Positions 9,611 to 51,671 of a stretch of 64,000 bases of DNA are shown here, piece by piece; the stretch's first letter is position 1, and each line of letters begins with the position of its first letter. The translations under genes were made by a program, and so were the position numbers. The notes under the pieces are model-generated. The model did no database searches and was not told the origin of the DNA. It saw nothing but the letters and a program-made list of their open reading frames with translations. The stretch comes from a virus, in IMG/VR virus record IMGVR_UViG_3300022751_000017, positions 27,187-91,186 of that record, one strand, 5' to 3'.

Positions 9611-9642
9611 AAAAGCCCCGCTAAATTAATAGCGGGGCTTTT
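9611..9642. terminator. Bidirectional intrinsic terminator
   Basis: AAAAGCCCCGCTA-aattaa-TAGCGGGGCTTTT between the convergent tRNA and groEL units. Confidence 0.85.
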
Positions 9643-21416: not shown

Positions 21417-24062
21417 ATGTTCTTATTAAGGGAATGGATTGAGACCAACGAGGGTGAAAAAAATATTGAGTGGGCTAACCGTATCATCTCATTTGTGCGG
21501 ATGTATATGTCGCCATTGGTCAATCTTGATTCTGCTGAGATGGGTATGAACTACCTGCTCGGGCGCCAGGATATGTCTCCTATACGCAACCTGTTCCAGA
21601 ATCCTATAGCCCTTAATCTGAACAACACCACATACGGTAATACAGGATACGGTAGAGTGTTTGGCCCCAATGGGCAGCCGGTAAAGCCCGAAGAGCGCAA
21701 TCTGCATCCTGAGATGTTAGGTGTTGAATTCCGCTCATTACCTGTAATGGAAAAGCTGAGGAACATGCTGGTGGCGGAGATGAAAAAAATGGGGGTAGTG
21801 CTCACCGTGAAAAGCGATGACCCTACCGCTACCATCAACAGGAAAAAGGACGAGGCGTTCATTAAGGACAGGCACAATATAGAAGGGCTTTTAAATTATA
21901 TTTATACCTCCATAGGCGAAGCCCCGTTCAAGATAGAAGAGCACGAGGCAAGGTTCGGGGAGAAGCCAGACAATGGCAACACTCAGGATTTTCAGCGTAT
22001 GAGTCTAAATCCTGGGAATCCATCTGATGTGGATTTCTTTATGCGTAATTTCCATAAGCTGGATGCGGAAATGGCGGCGGAGAATCCTATTAATTACTTC
22101 ATGAGATTTAATGAGGTAGAGGATATATTCTTTGAAAACTGGACTACAGACCTGGTGGCAAAAAAAGCTATTGCCGGGCAGCAGTACGTAAGTAAGCTAA
22201 ATGGAGCAATAAAGTTTGATTATCTCACTCCGGAGACAACGTACATATACGGTGGTGGGAGGAGAAAGGATTTTGATGATGCAAATGCCAAGGCATACCA
22301 GCAGAATATTACCATAAAAGATCTACTTGACAGGATAGGTGATGAATTCGATTTTAATAAAGAGCTTAATCTGCTTTTTCAGGCAGTTTATACCTGCAGC
22401 CAAGGATCAATTGATATTACCGGTATAGGTACAGACGCCCGTAATGGATGGTTTTGTTCAGCGCGCACAGGCACTAAGTACTCCTACCGGGATTTTATGG
22501 ACTTTAAGGTGTCTTTCGGATACATGGAGTGGATCAGCGCAAATGAGACAGATTATGGTGCTGAAGCAAACCTAACAGGTGACAGAAAGTTCGATGAGGA
22601 CAAGAGCACATTTTCTTATGGTGGGTCTGGAGGGGAAGAGTCTCCTGAAAAAAGGTACGCAAAAAAAGCGCGCTACGAGGTGCCTACATACAAGGCCTAC
22701 TATCTTGTTCTTAGTTCTTATGAGCAGCGGATATTTGATTTTGGCAAAGTAACTTACCAGCAGATAGAAGGGTACAATGACTTTAACTCAAACTGGACCA
22801 TACTCACTTACAAAGAGATAGGAGATAGTATTGCTATCAACTGCGCCCCTTTTGTAGACATCATCAATGAGTGCTGGTATAAATGGAAGTACGAGGTTCG
22901 CAAGGCAAAGCCCAGGGGGACTGATTACAACTATGACAGCCTTCTGGATATTGCTGAGGATACCTTTTCTGATACCAACATGACCCAGGCAGATAAGATA
23001 CAGAAGATGGTGTCTTGGCTAGATGCATCTGCCAATGGTATGTGGAAATTTCCGCAGATAGATGGGAAGATAGTAGCTATGTCCAACAATGCGCTGAATA
23101 TAGATAAGCCAAACGGACTGACTGCAGAGATCATGCGCTGGTGGGAAATGCTCATCAAGTCATGGGAGCAGATGCTATCGGTAGTAGGCCTTGATGCGCC
23201 CCTAAGGCAGGGTGATCCCGGCAATGCAAGGGATAGTATGAATAATCAGTTCAAGGCTCTGGAATATAGCCAGAACAATACTTATTATATCCCGGACAGC
23301 CTTACGTATATGGCGCAGAAGCTGGCTACGCGTACTATGCTGCAGGTTCAAGACATTATTCAGTTCAAAGATCATGATACCCTGGCATTTAAATTCCTTG
23401 CGGATGCTGTTGGAGAGGATTGTCTTGCCAGGATATCGCAGCTAGGCAAGAAGGCCATGCACCGGTATGGTATATTCGTGGAGAGCCTTAACCAGGCGCC
23501 ACAGAAGGCTAAGCTGGATGCGAGAATAGATGCCGCAATACAGAATGGTAAGATCAGCAATGCGGAAGCGCTAATGCTGGATGAAATAAAAAGCCTCAAG
23601 AGCAAGGCGCTAATGCTGGCCTATTTTGAGCAGCGCAATGCATCTCTTGTGCAGAAGAACGCTATGGAAATGCAGCAAGCCCAGGCGCAGCAAGCCCAGG
23701 CGCAGCTTCAGGGTGAAAAGGAAAACATTTTGCTCAAGGGCAACCTTGAGATTGAGAAGGCAAAGGTTGAAGGTAGCTTCGCGCTGCAAGGGCACATGAT
23801 CACACAGCAAGGCGGCATGGCTAAGCAGGAGATGAAGCATAGTGCAGATAGCAGGCAGATATACGAACAGGCTCAAGCCAATGTGATGGAGCAGCAACAG
23901 AGCCTTAATGATACCGGCAAGACTACACCGCCGGCGCAATCCGCAATAGTGCCTACGCCATACAGCAACCCTATTAACCAGATACCGCATCAGTCCGGCA
24001 TCCAGCAGTCGATGGCTGATTCCCAGCCGATGAGTACTGAACAGGCTGCGATGATTCCATAA
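21417..24062 (+). CDS. Portal protein (crAss-like)
   Basis: 881 aa, helical, Gln-rich C-terminal barrel (QQAQAQQAQAQ); position upstream of scaffold and MCP. Confidence 0.82.
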   Translation: MFLLREWIETNEGEKNIEWANRIISFVRMYMSPLVNLDSAEMGMNYLLGRQDMSPIRNLFQNPIALNLNNTTYGNTGYGRVFGPNGQPVKPEERNLHPEMLGVEFRSLPVMEKLRNMLVAEMKKMGVVLTVKSDDPTATINRKKDEAFIKDRHNIEGLLNYIYTSIGEAPFKIEEHEARFGEKPDNGNTQDFQRMSLNPGNPSDVDFFMRNFHKLDAEMAAENPINYFMRFNEVEDIFFENWTTDLVAKKAIAGQQYVSKLNGAIKFDYLTPETTYIYGGGRRKDFDDANAKAYQQNITIKDLLDRIGDEFDFNKELNLLFQAVYTCSQGSIDITGIGTDARNGWFCSARTGTKYSYRDFMDFKVSFGYMEWISANETDYGAEANLTGDRKFDEDKSTFSYGGSGGEESPEKRYAKKARYEVPTYKAYYLVLSSYEQRIFDFGKVTYQQIEGYNDFNSNWTILTYKEIGDSIAINCAPFVDIINECWYKWKYEVRKAKPRGTDYNYDSLLDIAEDTFSDTNMTQADKIQKMVSWLDASANGMWKFPQIDGKIVAMSNNALNIDKPNGLTAEIMRWWEMLIKSWEQMLSVVGLDAPLRQGDPGNARDSMNNQFKALEYSQNNTYYIPDSLTYMAQKLATRTMLQVQDIIQFKDHDTLAFKFLADAVGEDCLARISQLGKKAMHRYGIFVESLNQAPQKAKLDARIDAAIQNGKISNAEALMLDEIKSLKSKALMLAYFEQRNASLVQKNAMEMQQAQAQQAQAQLQGEKENILLKGNLEIEKAKVEGSFALQGHMITQQGGMAKQEMKHSADSRQIYEQAQANVMEQQQSLNDTGKTTPPAQSAIVPTPYSNPINQIPHQSGIQQSMADSQPMSTEQAAMIP

Positions 24063-24105
24063 ATAAAAGTGCCCTCAATATTGAGGGCACTTTTATTTAT
24101 GGAAT
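24054..24105. repeat. Perfect 52-bp palindrome (probably also a bidirectional terminator)
   Basis: ATTCCATAAATAAAAGTGCCCTCAAT|ATTGAGGGCACTTTTATTTATGGAAT; spans both convergent stop codons. Confidence 0.95.
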
Positions 24106-25889: not shown

Positions 25890-27464
25890 ATGATAACCTA
25901 CGCTTTAACTCCCCAGCATGCTCCACGTCAGATATTTTCCGTTGGTGAGGCACAGACTCAGTTCCAGCCGTTCTCAGATGTCTACAGGCAACTGTGGGAT
26001 TTCGTGGAAGATGGCGGATTAGATGCCTTCGGGATAAACAAGGAAGACCTGGCGCGTTGGCGTAAAAACTTCCGTGAGGGAGTGGTGAACATTGGTGGTA
26101 AGCCATCAGAGATAGACTTCTTCCGTATGATGATGGGTGGCACTCCTAAGGAGACAAACGCCTCTTCAATCAGCGTAGAGTATAACAGTGCGTTGGACTA
26201 CAACATATACGCAGAGAATGATGCTACCGGCACCAACGGCGCTGTCACCAATGCATACTTTGGAGACCTGATAAACGGCACTTACAATGGTAACTACGTG
26301 GTGTTCGACATTGCGGTTGATACTTATGCAGATAACGGTACCAAGTCCAATATAAATGTTGGCGACCAGATATTCAACTACATAGATGGTAAGTATCTGG
26401 TGGTGATCAAGAAGGATGTAACCACTCCTTTTGCGCACCATATCTACTGCGCACCTTTCGATGGTAACTATACGCCTCAGATATATGCGAAGCAGCCAAT
26501 GCAGCCCAACCATATACAGCTGGTGTCTGGTTATAGCGATGCTACTACATCTGCGCCGCACAGTGAGTGGGAAACCCTCGGTTACATCAAGGAGTATAAC
26601 CCATTCTCTCTTCGTACAGACTGGGAAACACCGCGTAACCTGGAGAAGCCATACAAGGATATTCTGCAGTTCCCGATCATATTCGATATGCATACCGGTG
26701 CAGAGATGGACTCATGGGACTTCAAAGCGATGGCTGATGGCCGCGAGCGTATGATCATGGGTGAGAACATGATGTTCTTCACAGGTGAGCAGCTGACCAA
26801 TGTAAGCCTGATATCAAATACATATACAAACCAGTATAACGGTTTTGAAGGGCTTCTGACCACCATCTGGTATGGCGGCGGCAATATACAGCAGTATGAC
26901 AATAGCTATGGTTACGACCTGGATGTTGACTTCATGCAGATGGTATTCTCAAACGATGCACTGAAGAAATCTCAGGAGTTCCTGTTCCTGGCCGCAAAGC
27001 GCTGGATATACATGATGGAGCGCCGTAGCCAGGATATGTTTAAGAATAACTCAGGGGCATGCACTTTTGATACGTTTGAGCGTATGGGTGATGAGCGTGC
27101 CGATCTGAAGCGCCTGGGCATCAACTCATACGAGTGGAGAGGTTCAACAATGCATATCAAGGAAGTCGGTGCATGGTCTGACAGCCGCTGGGTAGGTAAT
27201 GCTTATTTCCCCGCTATGGCTATAGTTCTGCCAGGCGATGGTCTTACAGACAGCAAGGGCAATAAAGTATCTCCGGTTGAGTACTGGATACCAGCAGGCC
27301 GTAGAGTGTCTGGAACATGGCAGGAAGAGTGGAGAGACCACATGAAGCTTTCAGATAAGGCTGATAAGTTCTCAGGTACCATTACTCATGACATTATGAT
27401 GAGCGTGAACGGAGTGGAAAATATGTGGGCAGTGATGCCGAAATACATTGTGAGCAATTCTTAA
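25890..27464 (+). CDS. Major capsid protein (HK97 fold, crAss-like)
   Basis: 524 aa; position; ENMMFFTG...GFEGLLTTI..GG motif; strongly C-ending codon bias suggesting high expression. Confidence 0.8.
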   Translation: MITYALTPQHAPRQIFSVGEAQTQFQPFSDVYRQLWDFVEDGGLDAFGINKEDLARWRKNFREGVVNIGGKPSEIDFFRMMMGGTPKETNASSISVEYNSALDYNIYAENDATGTNGAVTNAYFGDLINGTYNGNYVVFDIAVDTYADNGTKSNINVGDQIFNYIDGKYLVVIKKDVTTPFAHHIYCAPFDGNYTPQIYAKQPMQPNHIQLVSGYSDATTSAPHSEWETLGYIKEYNPFSLRTDWETPRNLEKPYKDILQFPIIFDMHTGAEMDSWDFKAMADGRERMIMGENMMFFTGEQLTNVSLISNTYTNQYNGFEGLLTTIWYGGGNIQQYDNSYGYDLDVDFMQMVFSNDALKKSQEFLFLAAKRWIYMMERRSQDMFKNNSGACTFDTFERMGDERADLKRLGINSYEWRGSTMHIKEVGAWSDSRWVGNAYFPAMAIVLPGDGLTDSKGNKVSPVEYWIPAGRRVSGTWQEEWRDHMKLSDKADKFSGTITHDIMMSVNGVENMWAVMPKYIVSNS

Positions 27465-29541: not shown

Positions 29542-29572
29542 TAAAGGGATACCTTAAACGGGTATCCCTTTA
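29542..29572 (+). terminator. Intrinsic terminator
   Basis: TAAAGGGATACC-ttaaacg-GGTATCCCTTTA. Confidence 0.75.
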
Positions 29573-38089: not shown

Positions 38090-41000
38090 ATGGGCGATAA
38101 GAATAAAAAGACCAGCACGGATGCGTGGAGCGACAATGATCTTCCGGTAGTCAGCAACCCTAATGCGTCAGCCAGTCAATCATCATGGGATGACAATGAC
38201 CTCCCATTGATAGAAGATGCTCAAAAAAAAAGCCCTGTCGGTTCCGCATATGGCTTGGCAAACTCTTCGCAAGGTGGTCAGCCAGGCTACTCGCAGGCAG
38301 CGCCGATTGAGAAGGTAGACTGGAATACACCTTCTGCCACTATTGATATGCCTGAAGTGCGAGGCATCACTGTAAATAATTCAGGGAAGCCAATGGCTCA
38401 GGCACTTCCAGCCCAGCAGCCAGCCTCAGTGCCTAAGAAAGTGCGTCCGGCAGCCCACGATGCCACGTCACATATTGCTCAGGACTTTGTAGATAACATG
38501 GATAATCTTGCTCCGCAGTATAAATCTGCGGATGATTTGCATTACAGTGATGTCAACAACCCAATAAATAAGATAACCAATCCGCACGGAGATCCTGAGT
38601 ACACTGCTGGATATATTACATCGCGTCTGGCCCAGGCAAGGCAGGAGTATGAACAAGCCCGTAAGGACATGCAAGCTAGGGCTCTTCATGGAGAACTTCC
38701 TACTCAGGAACAACAAGAGGCGTTTGGTAATTTTACCAGGCAGATGGGAGAGTTGAATAAACTGAAGACATCTGCCGGTGAAATAGTCGCGCTGCAGCTG
38801 TTCAATAAGGACTATTCTACCAAGCATCACGATGAGTCAACCGCCAATACAGCTATCCAGGCTCTCCGAAACCAGAGGGAGGCTGCTATATCAGATATAG
38901 ATAAGAAAATACAGGGCACTTACAAGTACGAGCACCCAGACGGTACATATGCCCAGAAAGAGCGCAATCAGCTGGAGCGACAGAAGGCAGAAATAGCAAA
39001 GCACTATAACCAGCAACAGGCAGAGGTATGGAACCAGACTAAGTATAATCCCATAAATCTTGGTGCGGAATATGCCGCACTCATGGGTGATGCAAAAGCA
39101 AAAGAGGATGTCGAAAAACTCAGGCAGGGCAAGTCTATTGACCCAGCGGCCCAATATAAATATAACCAGCGAGGTGATGAGATTATCAAGTCCGGTACTG
39201 CCGCCGCAACCAATGAAAAAGCAAAGGAGGAGGGGACAAAACATCTGGACGTTTCAGGTGAAAGATTATTCAACAATAACAAGGACTACTTAATTAACCA
39301 GGCGCGGCAAAAAATAGGAAATAAGCGTTATAAGGATGAAAGTGCTCTTCTGCATGCTATAGTTCCATCTGTATTCTTGCCTAATATTTCAAAGGCTGAG
39401 ATCAAGAAGTATGCAGAGGAGGAAGGGCTGGACGAACGGACTACCCAGGAATTGCTTAAGGAACCTGGAGAGATACCTAAATCAGCCAGTTTTCTCCAGC
39501 AGATGGGTAAGTCCATGCTGAACACCGCTGCGCCAATTTACGAGCAGGGAATACGCAATGCAGTACGAATTGTCGGTGGTGATGAAGAGGCTGTAAATGA
39601 GCGCTTCCAGCCAGGATGGGAAGATAATGCCGGTATAGGATCTGTTATTGCTGGGAATATGCCAACTGAGCAGAATAGTTTCAGAAATATCCGCGGTGCG
39701 GTTGGCCAGATACTTGGTGGCGCAGCAGGACTATCCACATTTGCTGGCGAAGTTGGCATTGCAGAGAAGGGCCTGGCAGCACTAGGTATGACCGCCGGTA
39801 AAGCAGAGAAACTTGCTAATTTCGGCGTGATGGCCTTCAGTGGATACAATAATGCTTACCATGAATCTAAGGAAATAATAGGTGATAAACCGGAAGATGA
39901 GTCTAAGCGTCAGTTGTATTCTATGGTGCGCGGTCTTGCTGAAGGGTCTATATTTTCTATCCACCCACCATCCAATCTCGTAAAGAATGCGCTGGGTGAT
40001 ATGGAGAAGTCCGGCGAGCAGTTTTTAAATGAGCTCAAGAGCAAGCCTGTTGCTGAAGTGTTACGTAATAAGCCTGCAATAGCAGACTATGTGGTAAATA
40101 TGGCAAAGGATCTGGGCGTGCAGGTAACACTAGCCGAGGGCAACCAGATAGCTACCAACATCATCAATACCATATCCGACAACAAGAAGCACGACTTAGA
40201 TGAGGGTGTGGTAGAAACCGGCATAAGCACTGCGCTATCAATGGCCATACCTTCTGTAATGAGCGGGTTCCAGCATACGCACATGCAGACGCCACTCAAC
40301 AAGGCTGCCATATTTGAAGTGGGCTCACACCCGGAACAGTATGTTGACCATATCATGCAGATGCGTAATGAGGGCAAGCTTACAGATGCTGAAGCCAACA
40401 AATTGTACCAGGACATTCAAACGATAAATAAAACAGTACAGGTAACCCCAACACACAATACAGATGGAGAGCCACTTACGCCAGATCAGATAAAAGATTA
40501 TGCATTCAACCTGTTACAAGAGGGAGTGCTTACCAAGCGTGTGGATGAGATAAATAAAAAGGCGGAGTCTGCTGGAGTCATTCCTGATAAGGCGCAAACA
40601 TCGCCATTAGAGAAAGGAATATCTGAGCTCACTAAGCAGAGAGAGGAGATTATGAAAACTGCTGGTCAGGGCAGGCCTGTGGAAACACCGGTAGAACAGG
40701 AAGCGGAAGAAAATATTCCTGAAGAAACAAAAGAAAATAATATACCTTTATCATCTGATAATTCCTCATCTAAAAAAGAAGAAAATGAAAGCATCACCAG
40801 CATCAAAGACAATGAAGGGCGGCAAGATGGCCCCGAAATCGAGCGGAGCGAAGAAGACGGGTCCGAACCCGAGCTTCGGAGCGCAGCCGACAGTGAAGGG
40901 CGGAGCCAACAAGAAGAAGATCGGGTACTAAGTTCCGAAAAAGGGAACGAGAAAGAGGCTGCTCAAACTGAGCAGCCTTCTGTCGTTAGGCAAAGAAGTA

Positions 41001-43351
41001 AGCGTAAGTATGCATCTGATAAAGAGGTAGTGTCAGATCTTGGACAGGAGCCATCGAAAGAGCCTATTGAAATACCTGCAGAGGAACCGAGCCAAACCGA
41101 TGCCGCAGTTCCTGAGAAAGCAGAAGAGAAGCCCATCGAAGAACCAGCCGTACAAGAGATCGTTGCAACGAAGGCAAGTGAAGATCCGCTTCCGGCACCC
41201 AAAGAAAGTATTCCTGTATCAGAATTAAACCAAGAAACAGATGCCAGTCCGCAAGCCCAAGCCCAACAGCGAGAAGGGCTTCAACCAAGCGGTGAGCAAG
41301 AACCTGCACGAGTTGAACCAGCCGGAAGTGAAGAAGCGTCCGCAAGCGCAGAAAGTAGCAATAGCGCTGAGCGAGGCGAGGCGAAAGAAATAACCCTACC
41401 TGAAGGCTTCACCACCCGTAAAACCAACGAGACCCGCAAGGACGGCAAGAAAATATTTACTAAAACTGAAGGAGATACCACGCATACGGTTACAGTAAAA
41501 AAAGATGGAACTGCAGTAGTGGAGTCCGTAGATAAATCATCTGGTATTGGTGTAGGTGAGCATTCAAAAACATATGCTGCAGATATCCAGGACTTTGACT
41601 CTCTTGAATCCGCTATAAAGCACGTTAATGAGTATGGTAAAGAAGTGCAAGCGGAAGCGCCGGTAGAAGATACGCATACCACCCGGATTAAAGAAATAGA
41701 CGAAGACCTGCTACGGCAGCGCGCTTCGCAAAAACTGGAGGCCGACAAGCGCAACAAAGCGGATAAGGCCAACAACATAGAAGCCTTCAACAAGGCTAAT
41801 GAGAACTGGTATAAGAAGCAGGAAAGAATAGATAAGCTTGAGGCTGAAAAGTCTAAGATGATTGCTGATCGCAGGTTAAAAGAGCGAGAGGTGCAAATCA
41901 AGGAGTCTTATAGTGCTGCCGCGGATAAGATAAGCTCTATGTATGAGCGTAATAAAAAAAGGCATAAAGGTATTGCTACTGCAAGTTTTACCGGGCTATC
42001 TCATAAAATAGCAGATCACGTCATGGACTTTCTGGTTGCTCGTGTAGTGGATGGGGTGAAAGAGCTAGGGAATATACATGTAGCTATTGACAGGGCCATA
42101 CGAATGGCTAAGGAAAAATATGGCGATGAAGCAAAAAAAATATCCCAGGAGGATGCGCTTAAAATAAAGGAGCATATAGGATATGAGATGCCTCCACAGG
42201 ACAGTGAGCCCGTACTATCCCTGCAGGATGAGGAGGTTGCCAAGCTTGATATAGCGGATATTGAAGCCGGAGTACCATATATAGAAGTAGTGAATGACAT
42301 ATTGAATGATGAAGGGCTAACTGACAAGAAGAAATCAAAAATCCTTAATTACATAGACTGGCATGTACAGGATAGAGATTATCACAATTCGCAGACACTA
42401 AGGGGTAAGAAGTACGATGGTAAATATCTTACAGGCTATGAATTAAAAAATTCCGATCAGATAAGCCCATATTTATCCGGCCACACATTGAAAGATGTGC
42501 ATGATCAGGATGTTCAGTTTGCTGTGAATTCAAAGGAAACGCAGCTGCTCAAAGGCTTGGTAGAAGATACTGCAAATATGGTAGGCCTTGCCAAAAGTCA
42601 TTCCGGGAGCGATGATGTTCTGGTGTATGGCACCGAGATGCTGGGCCACATTAAGAGCATGCCTGATGGTCCAGATGGACTTACGGTAAAGAAGCTGCTT
42701 GCCGTATCCGGGCTGAACAATGAACTGCACGGAGAGCGCATGCGCCTTGAGGAAGAAGCGATTAAAGCCAAGCCGGAGAGAAAAAATGAAATCAGTAACC
42801 GGCTGAATCAGATAAATAAGATGATTGCCCAGGCAGAGATCATGTACCGGGATATCACGAGCAATGCATCCAATGTACTTAATGCGGCCAGGGCAAATCG
42901 TATATTCAGAAACACATACTTTGCAGAGGAATTTGCAAACAAGATATTATCAGAGCAGCAGCTTTCAGCAAAAGAGGACATAGAGGGTGCGATGAGCAAT
43001 ACTACCATACCGGATAAGATAGTAGAGCAAGGTGCCACTGTAGATGCCAGGAAAGCAGAAAAAGACATTGAAGATATTATAGAGCAGAAGAGCAAGTCAG
43101 AGGCAGGACAGAACGTAGAGAGTGATATTACCAGCCAGAAAGAAACAACCAAGCCTAAGAGCAAGGGAAAGTCCCAAGGGGTAGTCGATAAATTACGTGA
43201 GCGCATCCGTAAAAAGAAGAAAGAGGGAGATGCGCGCGAAGAGGTGATAGATAAGAAGACTGCAGAAAAAAAGGCTAATGATTATCTTGCAGGCGCCACA
43301 CTTGAGGATTTATTTAAGAAAGCTAAAGAACAAACCAAGAAGCCATGCTAA
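38090..43351 (+). CDS. Large internal virion/ejection protein 3
   Basis: 1753 aa; Gly/Ala membrane-insertion-like region; acidic linker; single Cys as the last residue. Confidence 0.7.
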   Translation: MGDKNKKTSTDAWSDNDLPVVSNPNASASQSSWDDNDLPLIEDAQKKSPVGSAYGLANSSQGGQPGYSQAAPIEKVDWNTPSATIDMPEVRGITVNNSGKPMAQALPAQQPASVPKKVRPAAHDATSHIAQDFVDNMDNLAPQYKSADDLHYSDVNNPINKITNPHGDPEYTAGYITSRLAQARQEYEQARKDMQARALHGELPTQEQQEAFGNFTRQMGELNKLKTSAGEIVALQLFNKDYSTKHHDESTANTAIQALRNQREAAISDIDKKIQGTYKYEHPDGTYAQKERNQLERQKAEIAKHYNQQQAEVWNQTKYNPINLGAEYAALMGDAKAKEDVEKLRQGKSIDPAAQYKYNQRGDEIIKSGTAAATNEKAKEEGTKHLDVSGERLFNNNKDYLINQARQKIGNKRYKDESALLHAIVPSVFLPNISKAEIKKYAEEEGLDERTTQELLKEPGEIPKSASFLQQMGKSMLNTAAPIYEQGIRNAVRIVGGDEEAVNERFQPGWEDNAGIGSVIAGNMPTEQNSFRNIRGAVGQILGGAAGLSTFAGEVGIAEKGLAALGMTAGKAEKLANFGVMAFSGYNNAYHESKEIIGDKPEDESKRQLYSMVRGLAEGSIFSIHPPSNLVKNALGDMEKSGEQFLNELKSKPVAEVLRNKPAIADYVVNMAKDLGVQVTLAEGNQIATNIINTISDNKKHDLDEGVVETGISTALSMAIPSVMSGFQHTHMQTPLNKAAIFEVGSHPEQYVDHIMQMRNEGKLTDAEANKLYQDIQTINKTVQVTPTHNTDGEPLTPDQIKDYAFNLLQEGVLTKRVDEINKKAESAGVIPDKAQTSPLEKGISELTKQREEIMKTAGQGRPVETPVEQEAEENIPEETKENNIPLSSDNSSSKKEENESITSIKDNEGRQDGPEIERSEEDGSEPELRSAADSEGRSQQEEDRVLSSEKGNEKEAAQTEQPSVVRQRSKRKYASDKEVVSDLGQEPSKEPIEIPAEEPSQTDAAVPEKAEEKPIEEPAVQEIVATKASEDPLPAPKESIPVSELNQETDASPQAQAQQREGLQPSGEQEPARVEPAGSEEASASAESSNSAERGEAKEITLPEGFTTRKTNETRKDGKKIFTKTEGDTTHTVTVKKDGTAVVESVDKSSGIGVGEHSKTYAADIQDFDSLESAIKHVNEYGKEVQAEAPVEDTHTTRIKEIDEDLLRQRASQKLEADKRNKADKANNIEAFNKANENWYKKQERIDKLEAEKSKMIADRRLKEREVQIKESYSAAADKISSMYERNKKRHKGIATASFTGLSHKIADHVMDFLVARVVDGVKELGNIHVAIDRAIRMAKEKYGDEAKKISQEDALKIKEHIGYEMPPQDSEPVLSLQDEEVAKLDIADIEAGVPYIEVVNDILNDEGLTDKKKSKILNYIDWHVQDRDYHNSQTLRGKKYDGKYLTGYELKNSDQISPYLSGHTLKDVHDQDVQFAVNSKETQLLKGLVEDTANMVGLAKSHSGSDDVLVYGTEMLGHIKSMPDGPDGLTVKKLLAVSGLNNELHGERMRLEEEAIKAKPERKNEISNRLNQINKMIAQAEIMYRDITSNASNVLNAARANRIFRNTYFAEEFANKILSEQQLSAKEDIEGAMSNTTIPDKIVEQGATVDARKAEKDIEDIIEQKSKSEAGQNVESDITSQKETTKPKSKGKSQGVVDKLRERIRKKKKEGDAREEVIDKKTAEKKANDYLAGATLEDLFKKAKEQTKKPC
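40785..40931 (+). CDS. Overprinted (+1 frame) 48-aa Lys-rich basic protein
   Basis: MKASPASKTMKGGKMAPKSSGAKKTGPNPSFGAQPTVKGGANKKKIGY; A-rich leader; upstream TACCTTTA; downstream 10-bp hairpin. Confidence 0.65.
   Translation: MKASPASKTMKGGKMAPKSSGAKKTGPNPSFGAQPTVKGGANKKKIGY
40956..40978 (+). terminator. Hairpin after the nested ORF
   Basis: AGGCTGCTCA-aac-TGAGCAGCCT; weak U-tract. Confidence 0.5.
41241..41393 (+). CDS. Overprinted (+1 frame) 50-aa basic protein, DUF6496-like
   Basis: MPVRKPKPNSEKGFNQAVSKNLHELNQPEVKKRPQAQKVAIALSEARRKK; ends in the Q..AIALSEAR signature. Confidence 0.75.
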   Translation: MPVRKPKPNSEKGFNQAVSKNLHELNQPEVKKRPQAQKVAIALSEARRKK

Positions 43352-46670: not shown

Positions 46671-46701
46671 AGTAAAGCCACTCGGATTGAGTGGCTTTAC
46701 T
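46671..46701 (+). terminator. Intrinsic terminator
   Basis: AGTAAAGCCACTC-ggatt-GAGTGGCTTTACT. Confidence 0.75.
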
Positions 46702-46815: not shown

Positions 46816-47066
46816 TAACTGTCATTTCCCATAGGGGAAAGGACTTGGCGGCCCACATTGCCGTAATTGTGGGATATCTCGGCAACCATGCGCAATATCA
46901 GTAAGCGTTGAAGGAGTATAGAAGTCGTATTGTTTTAGTGCGATTTCGGAAATTAGTTGACCACTCAAATGAGTGGAACAAATCTTAAAATGCATACCCA
47001 CGATGGTATGCATTTTAAGATTAGATTTGTGCCGCCGCAATGGTGCGGTAAAAAAACTTACACAAG

Positions 47067-51636: not shown

Positions 51637-51671
51637 CAAACGGGGTGCAGTTGATAGCTGCACCCCGTTTG
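51637..51671. terminator. Bidirectional terminator at the convergence of late and early blocks
   Basis: CAAACGGGGTGCAG-ttgatag-CTGCACCCCGTTTG. Confidence 0.85.

Follow-up and report, generated by a model that had tools for sequence, protein, structure and literature searches.

A candidate nested gene for a small basic peptide within the acidic linker of a giant phage protein

Does the acidic linker of a giant phage protein also host, in a second frame of the same DNA, a gene for a small basic peptide? This question is raised by a stretch of 64,000 nucleotides (hereafter the window), which corresponds to positions 27,187 to 91,186 of the 91-kb IMG/VR virus record IMGVR_UViG_3300022751_000017 and contains a host gene of 1753 aa, P0002, within which a 48-codon open reading frame (ORF), P0001, lies in the +1 frame. 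An original prediction, made from the DNA letters, had proposed that P0001 is a small basic protein overprinted in the acidic linker of this gene and expressed from a hidden transcription unit. The start context of P0001, the open mRNA around its ATG, an anomaly in host-frame codon choice, a conserved island and a nested neighbour argue for such an overprinted protein, whereas constraint on the +1 frame is seen in the closest homologues only and the peptide is without relatives. The features on which the argument turns are the following.

38090..43351, + strand: P0002, the host gene, 1753 aa, conserved over ~870 aa at the N-terminal end and again in the C-terminal part, with a variable acidic linker between them
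40771..40784, + strand: A-rich unstructured leader TAAAAAAGAAGAAA, directly 5' of the ATG, a candidate region for internal initiation without a Shine-Dalgarno (SD) sequence
40785..40931, + strand: P0001, the 48-codon +1-frame ORF, from ATG 40785 to TAA 40931 as read from the sequence
40796..40930, + strand: host-frame island 1, residues 903-947, with a G+C content of 0.57-0.61 and 9% T

Start context, codon usage and conservation of the 48-codon frame

The peptide had been described as a Lys-rich product with 11 Lys and no Asp or Glu in its 48 aa, and this is exactly what the sequence from 40785 to 40931 gives. The box TACCTTTA at 40743, the A-rich leader and the 10-bp hairpin at 40956-40978, which had been reported around it, are likewise present as described. 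The product is a low-complexity peptide of ~5 kDa, rich in Lys, Gly, Ala, Pro and Ser, and is read in the +1 frame relative to the host ORF. This frame is already open from 40695, that is, upstream of ATG 40785, and the P0001 region contains 9% T, compared with 20% for the whole host gene.

The start of P0001 was evaluated with a start-context position weight matrix trained on 53 gene starts. ATG 40785 scores 10.1, which ranks it 1 of the 836 out-of-frame internal ATGs in the window (the runner-up reaches 5.9) and places it above 96% of true starts. A score of 10.1 is attained in 0.5% of synonymous resamplings in which the host residues are kept fixed, and only 3.7% of the out-of-frame internal ATGs begin an ORF of 48 aa or more. 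The mRNA around this ATG is also unusually open, as the folding energy from -30 to +30 is -1.7 kcal/mol, compared with a median of -3.5 at true starts and of -10.4 at internal ATGs, and in a sample of 400 internal ATGs not one is equally open. In both start context and mRNA openness, ATG 40785 resembles true starts. By inspection, no obvious SD sequence is found at the listed gene starts of the window, whose leaders are A/T-rich, and these SD-less, A/T-rich leaders match the pattern of Bacteroidota-type hosts.

Reduced synonymous freedom of the host frame was judged by a codon-usage proxy taken from this single sequence, and it is found over P0001. Host-frame synonymous usage has here a z of -4.2, the lowest of 597 windows: all five Arg residues are encoded by CGG (9% usage), all Gln by CAA and all Ile by ATC. 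A penalised segment scan places the most atypical segment among all 53 genes at 40793-40912, within P0001, with a family-wise p of 0.02. The codon usage of the +1 frame of P0001 is itself unexceptional (z -1.5, with 46 of the 597 control windows lower). RNA structure is not the cause of the synonymous anomaly, since the fold z over P0001 is 0.0 relative to shuffled controls; the sole Rfam match, with an E of 0.36, lies under its gathering score.

The same region is internally repetitive. The 15-nt direct repeat GACARTGAAGGGCGG occurs twice inside P0001, at 40808-40822 and 40889-40903 on the + strand with an 81-nt spacing; its host-frame reading is D(N/S)EGR and its +1 reading T(M/V)KGG. CGGAGC is present three times, which suggests internal duplication. 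Because of these internal repeats, the five CGG codons are not fully independent events.

In the host-protein alignment, P0001 coincides with island 1, which is kept in the homologues P0004, P0005, P0006, P0008 and P0009. Mean identity falls from 0.56 within the island to 0.35 on its upstream and 0.13 on its downstream side, and conservation stops at Leu-947 (L947), whose codon overlaps the +1 stop of P0001. As judged from the proteins, every island-bearing homologue permits both Met positions of P0001, each of which requires an Asn and then a G-initial codon, as well as the stop, which requires a Leu and then an A-initial codon. Constraint on the +1 frame was measured as the highest +1 identity that any codon choice permits for each homologue protein, in comparison with control windows of the same protein. 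For P0004/P0005, the possible +1 identity of P0001 is 0.89, compared with an expected 0.71 (z 3.9), and none of 109 control windows is as high. With respect to these homologues, 12 of the 17 replacements are explicable by changes at the first codon position, most of which are silent in the +1 frame; when single-base replacements alone are taken as the reference, the first-position share is marginal (12 of 14 vs 0.59, p ~0.03), and it is therefore not relied on by itself. If real, P0001 would be restricted to part of the host family or would be fast-evolving, to judge from these protein comparisons.

A region search with host residues 893-952 returned the query itself as the sole match. Homologous DNA was sought by several routes: no relatives were reached via protein or alignment in viral, metagenome and genome contigs, and megablast and tblastn against GenBank phages gave nothing. 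Back-translated patterns of islands 1 and 2 gave chance matches only (one pattern covered only Arg at a Gly/Arg position), and the back-translated pattern of the GDKPEDE motif had no match at all.

A second nested frame in the same linker

The acidic linker contains another +1-frame ORF, which begins 310 nt downstream of P0001 and coincides with the second conserved linker island.

41241..41393, + strand: P0022, a +1-frame ORF of 50 aa in the same linker, a full-length homologue of the phrog_2423 / DUF6496-like family of small phage proteins

P0022 gives a weak Pfam match to DUF6496 and a match to phrog_2423 with an E of 0.005. Its relatives in IMG/VR, found at 19 loci with 44-61% identity, either stand alone as genes of 45-57 aa or make up the N-terminal domain of longer proteins. 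A hidden Markov model (HMM) of the P0022 family hits this frame alone among 1818 six-frame segments of at least 20 aa (50.6 bits, E 1.4e-14), and the start and stop of P0022 sit where full-length family members have theirs. Its +1 constraint in four host homologues reaches z values of 6.9, 6.0, 3.0 and 2.3, with a flat +2-frame control. Given this excess in four homologues and the flat +2 frame, the linker of the host gene family does contain a nested +1 gene that is under selection.

P0022 is like P0001 in that both lie in the same gene and in the +1 frame, within a G+C-rich, T-poor conserved island, and in that both encode a basic product of ~50 aa from an ATG of their own in open mRNA. It differs from P0001 in having many free-standing relatives and in showing +1 constraint in every homologue tested, whereas the constraint on P0001 is confined to the closest clade. 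The membership of P0001 itself in the phrog_2423 / DUF6496 (PF20106) family was considered and rejected, as there is neither a profile match nor the motif: P0001 is absent from the matches of the phrog_2423-type family HMM, and the C-terminal AIALSEARR-type motif is not in the peptide. When the P0022-family loci and proteins were searched with P0001 by tblastn and blastp, only noise was returned.

Some further observations concern P0022. The host residue that carries its ATG is D, N or H among the homologues, all of which have NAT codons. P0022 is the sole copy of its family found in the 91-kb record, and no synteny was found between its free-standing relatives and the giant gene. At five of the IMG/VR loci (L012, L013, L021, L024 and L029), proteins of 190-456 aa have the phrog_2423-like domain at their N-terminus and share a conserved C-terminal region, HTGPIHSPVAGRTDHLP ... 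PIVAAGGEYVI ... GH..LD.F. Another 15-nt direct repeat, AAGAAARTATTCCTG, is present with one mismatch at 40707-40721 and 41202-41216 on the + strand, upstream of both starts, with 78 nt to ATG 40785 and 39 nt to ATG 41241, and reads (E/K)(E)(N/S)IP in the host frame.

Readings of the locus

The reading preferred here, to which we assign close to, though less than, an even chance, proposes that P0001 is a gene nested in the giant one and maintained there, that ribosomes translate it by initiating internally on the giant gene's own late mRNA, and that it has no promoter of its own. ATG 40785 would offer the ribosome an A-rich, unfolded, SD-less context better than almost every annotated start. 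The signals are individually moderate and may in part go back to one shared compositional cause. The product is predicted from its composition to be a disordered polycation that may bind nucleic acid or the acidic linker, and it is likewise its composition that suggests the DNA-condensing function proposed originally. On this reading, the long ORF would run across small basic-protein genes and the acidic linker would be their alternative translation, and this would explain the conserved, T-poor, G+C-rich islands. A broader proposal, possible and rather doubtful, is that both +1 ORFs are functional, and that the acidic linkers of this family of giant virion proteins arose from a long ORF reading out of frame across small basic-protein genes that remained active. 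If it were true, the conserved 'linker islands' would be nested genes missed by gene callers, and one gene would yield a giant protein with a polyanionic linker together with its own small polycations.

Nested genes of this kind have precedents. Lambda Rz1, nested in Rz (the spanin genes), and phiX174 gene E, nested in gene D, are small +1-frame genes that have their own start on the same strand, and P0001 would resemble them as a small phage gene that lies wholly inside a larger one, on the same strand and in the +1 frame. Rz1 and E differ from it in being membrane or lysis products with demonstrated expression, whereas P0001 is a predicted disordered polycation and sits in the DNA for the acidic linker of a giant virion protein. 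Small basic DNA-condensing peptides are represented by adenovirus mu and VII and by the tails of histone H1. These are similar to P0001 in composition only, all being rich in Lys, Ala, Pro and Gly, free of acidic residues and probably disordered, and no sequence relationship of P0001 to them was found. To our knowledge, there are few examples of nested genes beyond small-genome phages and the lambda Rz/Rz1 type, and standard annotation does not see those that lie in long phage genes. If both ORFs were expressed, the locus would provide a testable case of giant multi-domain virion proteins that grow by reading through small genes, it would indicate that conserved stretches of 'disordered linkers' can be second genes, and it would exemplify internal initiation that is independent of an SD sequence, in a phage whose host is of the Bacteroidota type. 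If P0001 is not expressed, it is an ordinary by-product of composition.

This last explanation, a substantial possibility that we nonetheless place below an even chance, holds that P0001 is untranslated and that the island is kept for the sake of the host protein, for example as a docking or processing motif in its disordered linker. T-poor coding for Glu, Gly and Arg would leave the +1 frame open and Lys-rich, as is consistent with the 9% T of the region, and a preceding stretch rich in Lys, Glu, Asn and Ser would mimic a start region. Several results favour it and weigh against a maintained gene. When the amino-acid sequence of the host is fixed and synonymous codons are redrawn, 34-39% of the resamplings contain an ATG ORF that overlaps 40785-40931 and reaches 48 aa or more; the length of P0001 is therefore no evidence for it and was discarded as such. 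The host gene contains eight +1 ATG ORFs of at least 30 aa, among them ORFs of 73, 50, 48 and 42 aa. Island 1 has been lost from P0003, the +1 excess is control-like relative to P0006 (z 1.2) and P0008 (z -0.5), where host-frame conservation alone suffices, and P0008 and P0009 differ by three second-position changes. The P0001 peptide has no match in Pfam or PHROGs up to an E of 10, none in a word search of 5.8 billion proteins, none by phmmer in 1.84 billion representatives, and no relative in IMG/VR or in the phage's own genome. Finally, the signals from start context, openness and codon choice may all stem from a single compositional cause, namely a T-poor island behind an A-rich stretch. 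The chance-level length, the lack of relatives and the lack of +1 excess in the more distant homologues are real signals against the gene, but not decisive ones for a short disordered product. The by-product explanation has its own difficulties, as the most atypical synonymous choices of the host frame fall exactly at P0001, the synonymous choices upstream maximise start-likeness, and the replacements relative to P0004, biased to the first codon position, are left unexplained. In the Atlas, a 0.92 look-alike of P0001 belongs to a cluster without a name and with low recognition, and represents a weak lead only.

The third +1 ATG ORF of the linker, of 42 aa (41100-41228, + strand), lies between both islands and has a start score of -12.3, a host-frame conservation of 0.19 and no family match. 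It is probably a product of chance, can be used as an internal negative control, and its lack of conservation fits the by-product explanation.

It could also be argued that the atypical codons form a rare-codon cluster or a nucleotide-level element, and not a second frame. This is improbable. Rare-codon clusters at domain boundaries can slow translation, and residues 899-947, just past the end of the conserved N-terminal part, contain a cluster of five CGG, two CCC, three ATC and three CAA codons. In one variant, a translational pause ~30-80 codons after the 870-aa N-terminal domain would aid its folding; in another, the 15-nt repeat (40808, 40889), with its 81-nt spacing, would mark a DNA site. 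Such an element does not predict an optimal, unfolded ATG at the upstream edge of the conserved stretch, nor a stop codon at its downstream edge, and it is accompanied by neither an RNA structure signal nor an Rfam match. Alternatively, the +1 frame might be entered by a ribosomal frameshift at AAA AAA G (40772-40778), which would yield a truncated protein made of the N-terminal domain and a basic tail of ~50 residues that ends at 40931. The +1 frame is indeed open from well before this site, and AAAAAAG, 7 nt in front of the ATG, is in a phase that would let tRNA-Lys re-pair on AAG. At the slip site, however, there is no stimulatory structure, stop codon or known +1 shift signal, the hairpin is 180 nt downstream, and the start-context evidence favours initiation; a frameshift is very unlikely.

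The remaining possibility is the one put forward originally, in which P0001 forms an autonomous internal transcription unit delimited by two elements.

40743..40750, + strand: TACCTTTA, the proposed -7 box, which encodes Ile-Pro-Leu of the host-frame NIPLS
40956..40978, + strand: perfect hairpin of 10 bp with a 3-nt loop (arms 40956-40965 and 40969-40978), 25 nt after the P0001 stop

The position of TACCTTTA, 34 nt before the ATG, and that of a perfect hairpin shortly after the stop are what speak for such a unit, and the box lies within the conserved NIPLS. The box ends in A and not in the G of TAnnTTTG, and no TTTG is present 17-23 nt upstream, at the -33 position; lacking both, TACCTTTA was rejected as a Bacteroidota-type promoter. 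TAnnTTTA occurs 76 times on both strands of the window and TAnnTTT[ACT] 92 times on the + strand, full two-element matches (TAnnTTTG with a -33 TTTG) are found at seven places elsewhere in the window, and a sigma-70 scan gave nothing at TACCTTTA. The tail of the hairpin on the + strand, CTGTCGTT, has no T-run, for which reason the hairpin was rejected as an intrinsic terminator of P0001; the terminator scan scores it on the minus strand only. It also lacks A/T flanks, unlike the intergenic terminators at 9611, 24054, 46671 and 51637. Over the whole window, three perfect intragenic hairpins of at least 9 bp are seen vs ~1.4 expected by chance, and the host-frame residues across this one are not conserved in the homologues. 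In addition, termination at this point within a gene of 5.3 kb would cut the host mRNA short. A separate transcription unit for P0001 is not supported, and this explanation has hardly any probability.

The host gene family, its linker and the intergenic hairpins

P0002 itself has no Pfam or PHROG match. Its homologues, ~20 proteins of 1900-2600 aa with 33-53% identity, include some that carry histidine-phosphatase, ParB-like, acetyltransferase and Pfam PolyVal-type domains, and precomputed Pfam assignments on the homologues list PF00300, PF02195, PF18763, PF18760 and PF18762. A domain-swapping giant architecture of this kind has been described for the polyvalent proteins of phages and conjugative elements (Iyer et al. 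2017, PMC5512222). The homologues of P0002 are like these polyvalent proteins in being giants of virion gene clusters with exchangeable enzyme domains, some of which are of the PolyVal type; P0002 differs from them in that its own sequence matches neither Pfam nor PHROGs. The word 'overlapping' is absent from the main text of that paper (PMC5512222).

Other observations were made in the linker of P0002 and elsewhere in the window. The small host-frame motif NNIPLS (40733-40753, + strand), which contains the proposed -7 box, is conserved in an otherwise variable part of the linker. A second, milder dip in synonymous usage (-0.12) is located at 41642-41790 on the + strand, in a G+C-rich part of the same host gene, and overlaps a 206-aa ORF on the minus strand (41281-41901). 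Long perfect hairpins are present between genes at 9611-9642, 24054-24105, 29542-29572, 46671-46701, 46981-47022 and 51637-51671; these have stems of 12-24 bp, in several cases with A/T-rich flanks, lie 3' of gene ends, and look like the actual, partly bidirectional terminators of the phage.

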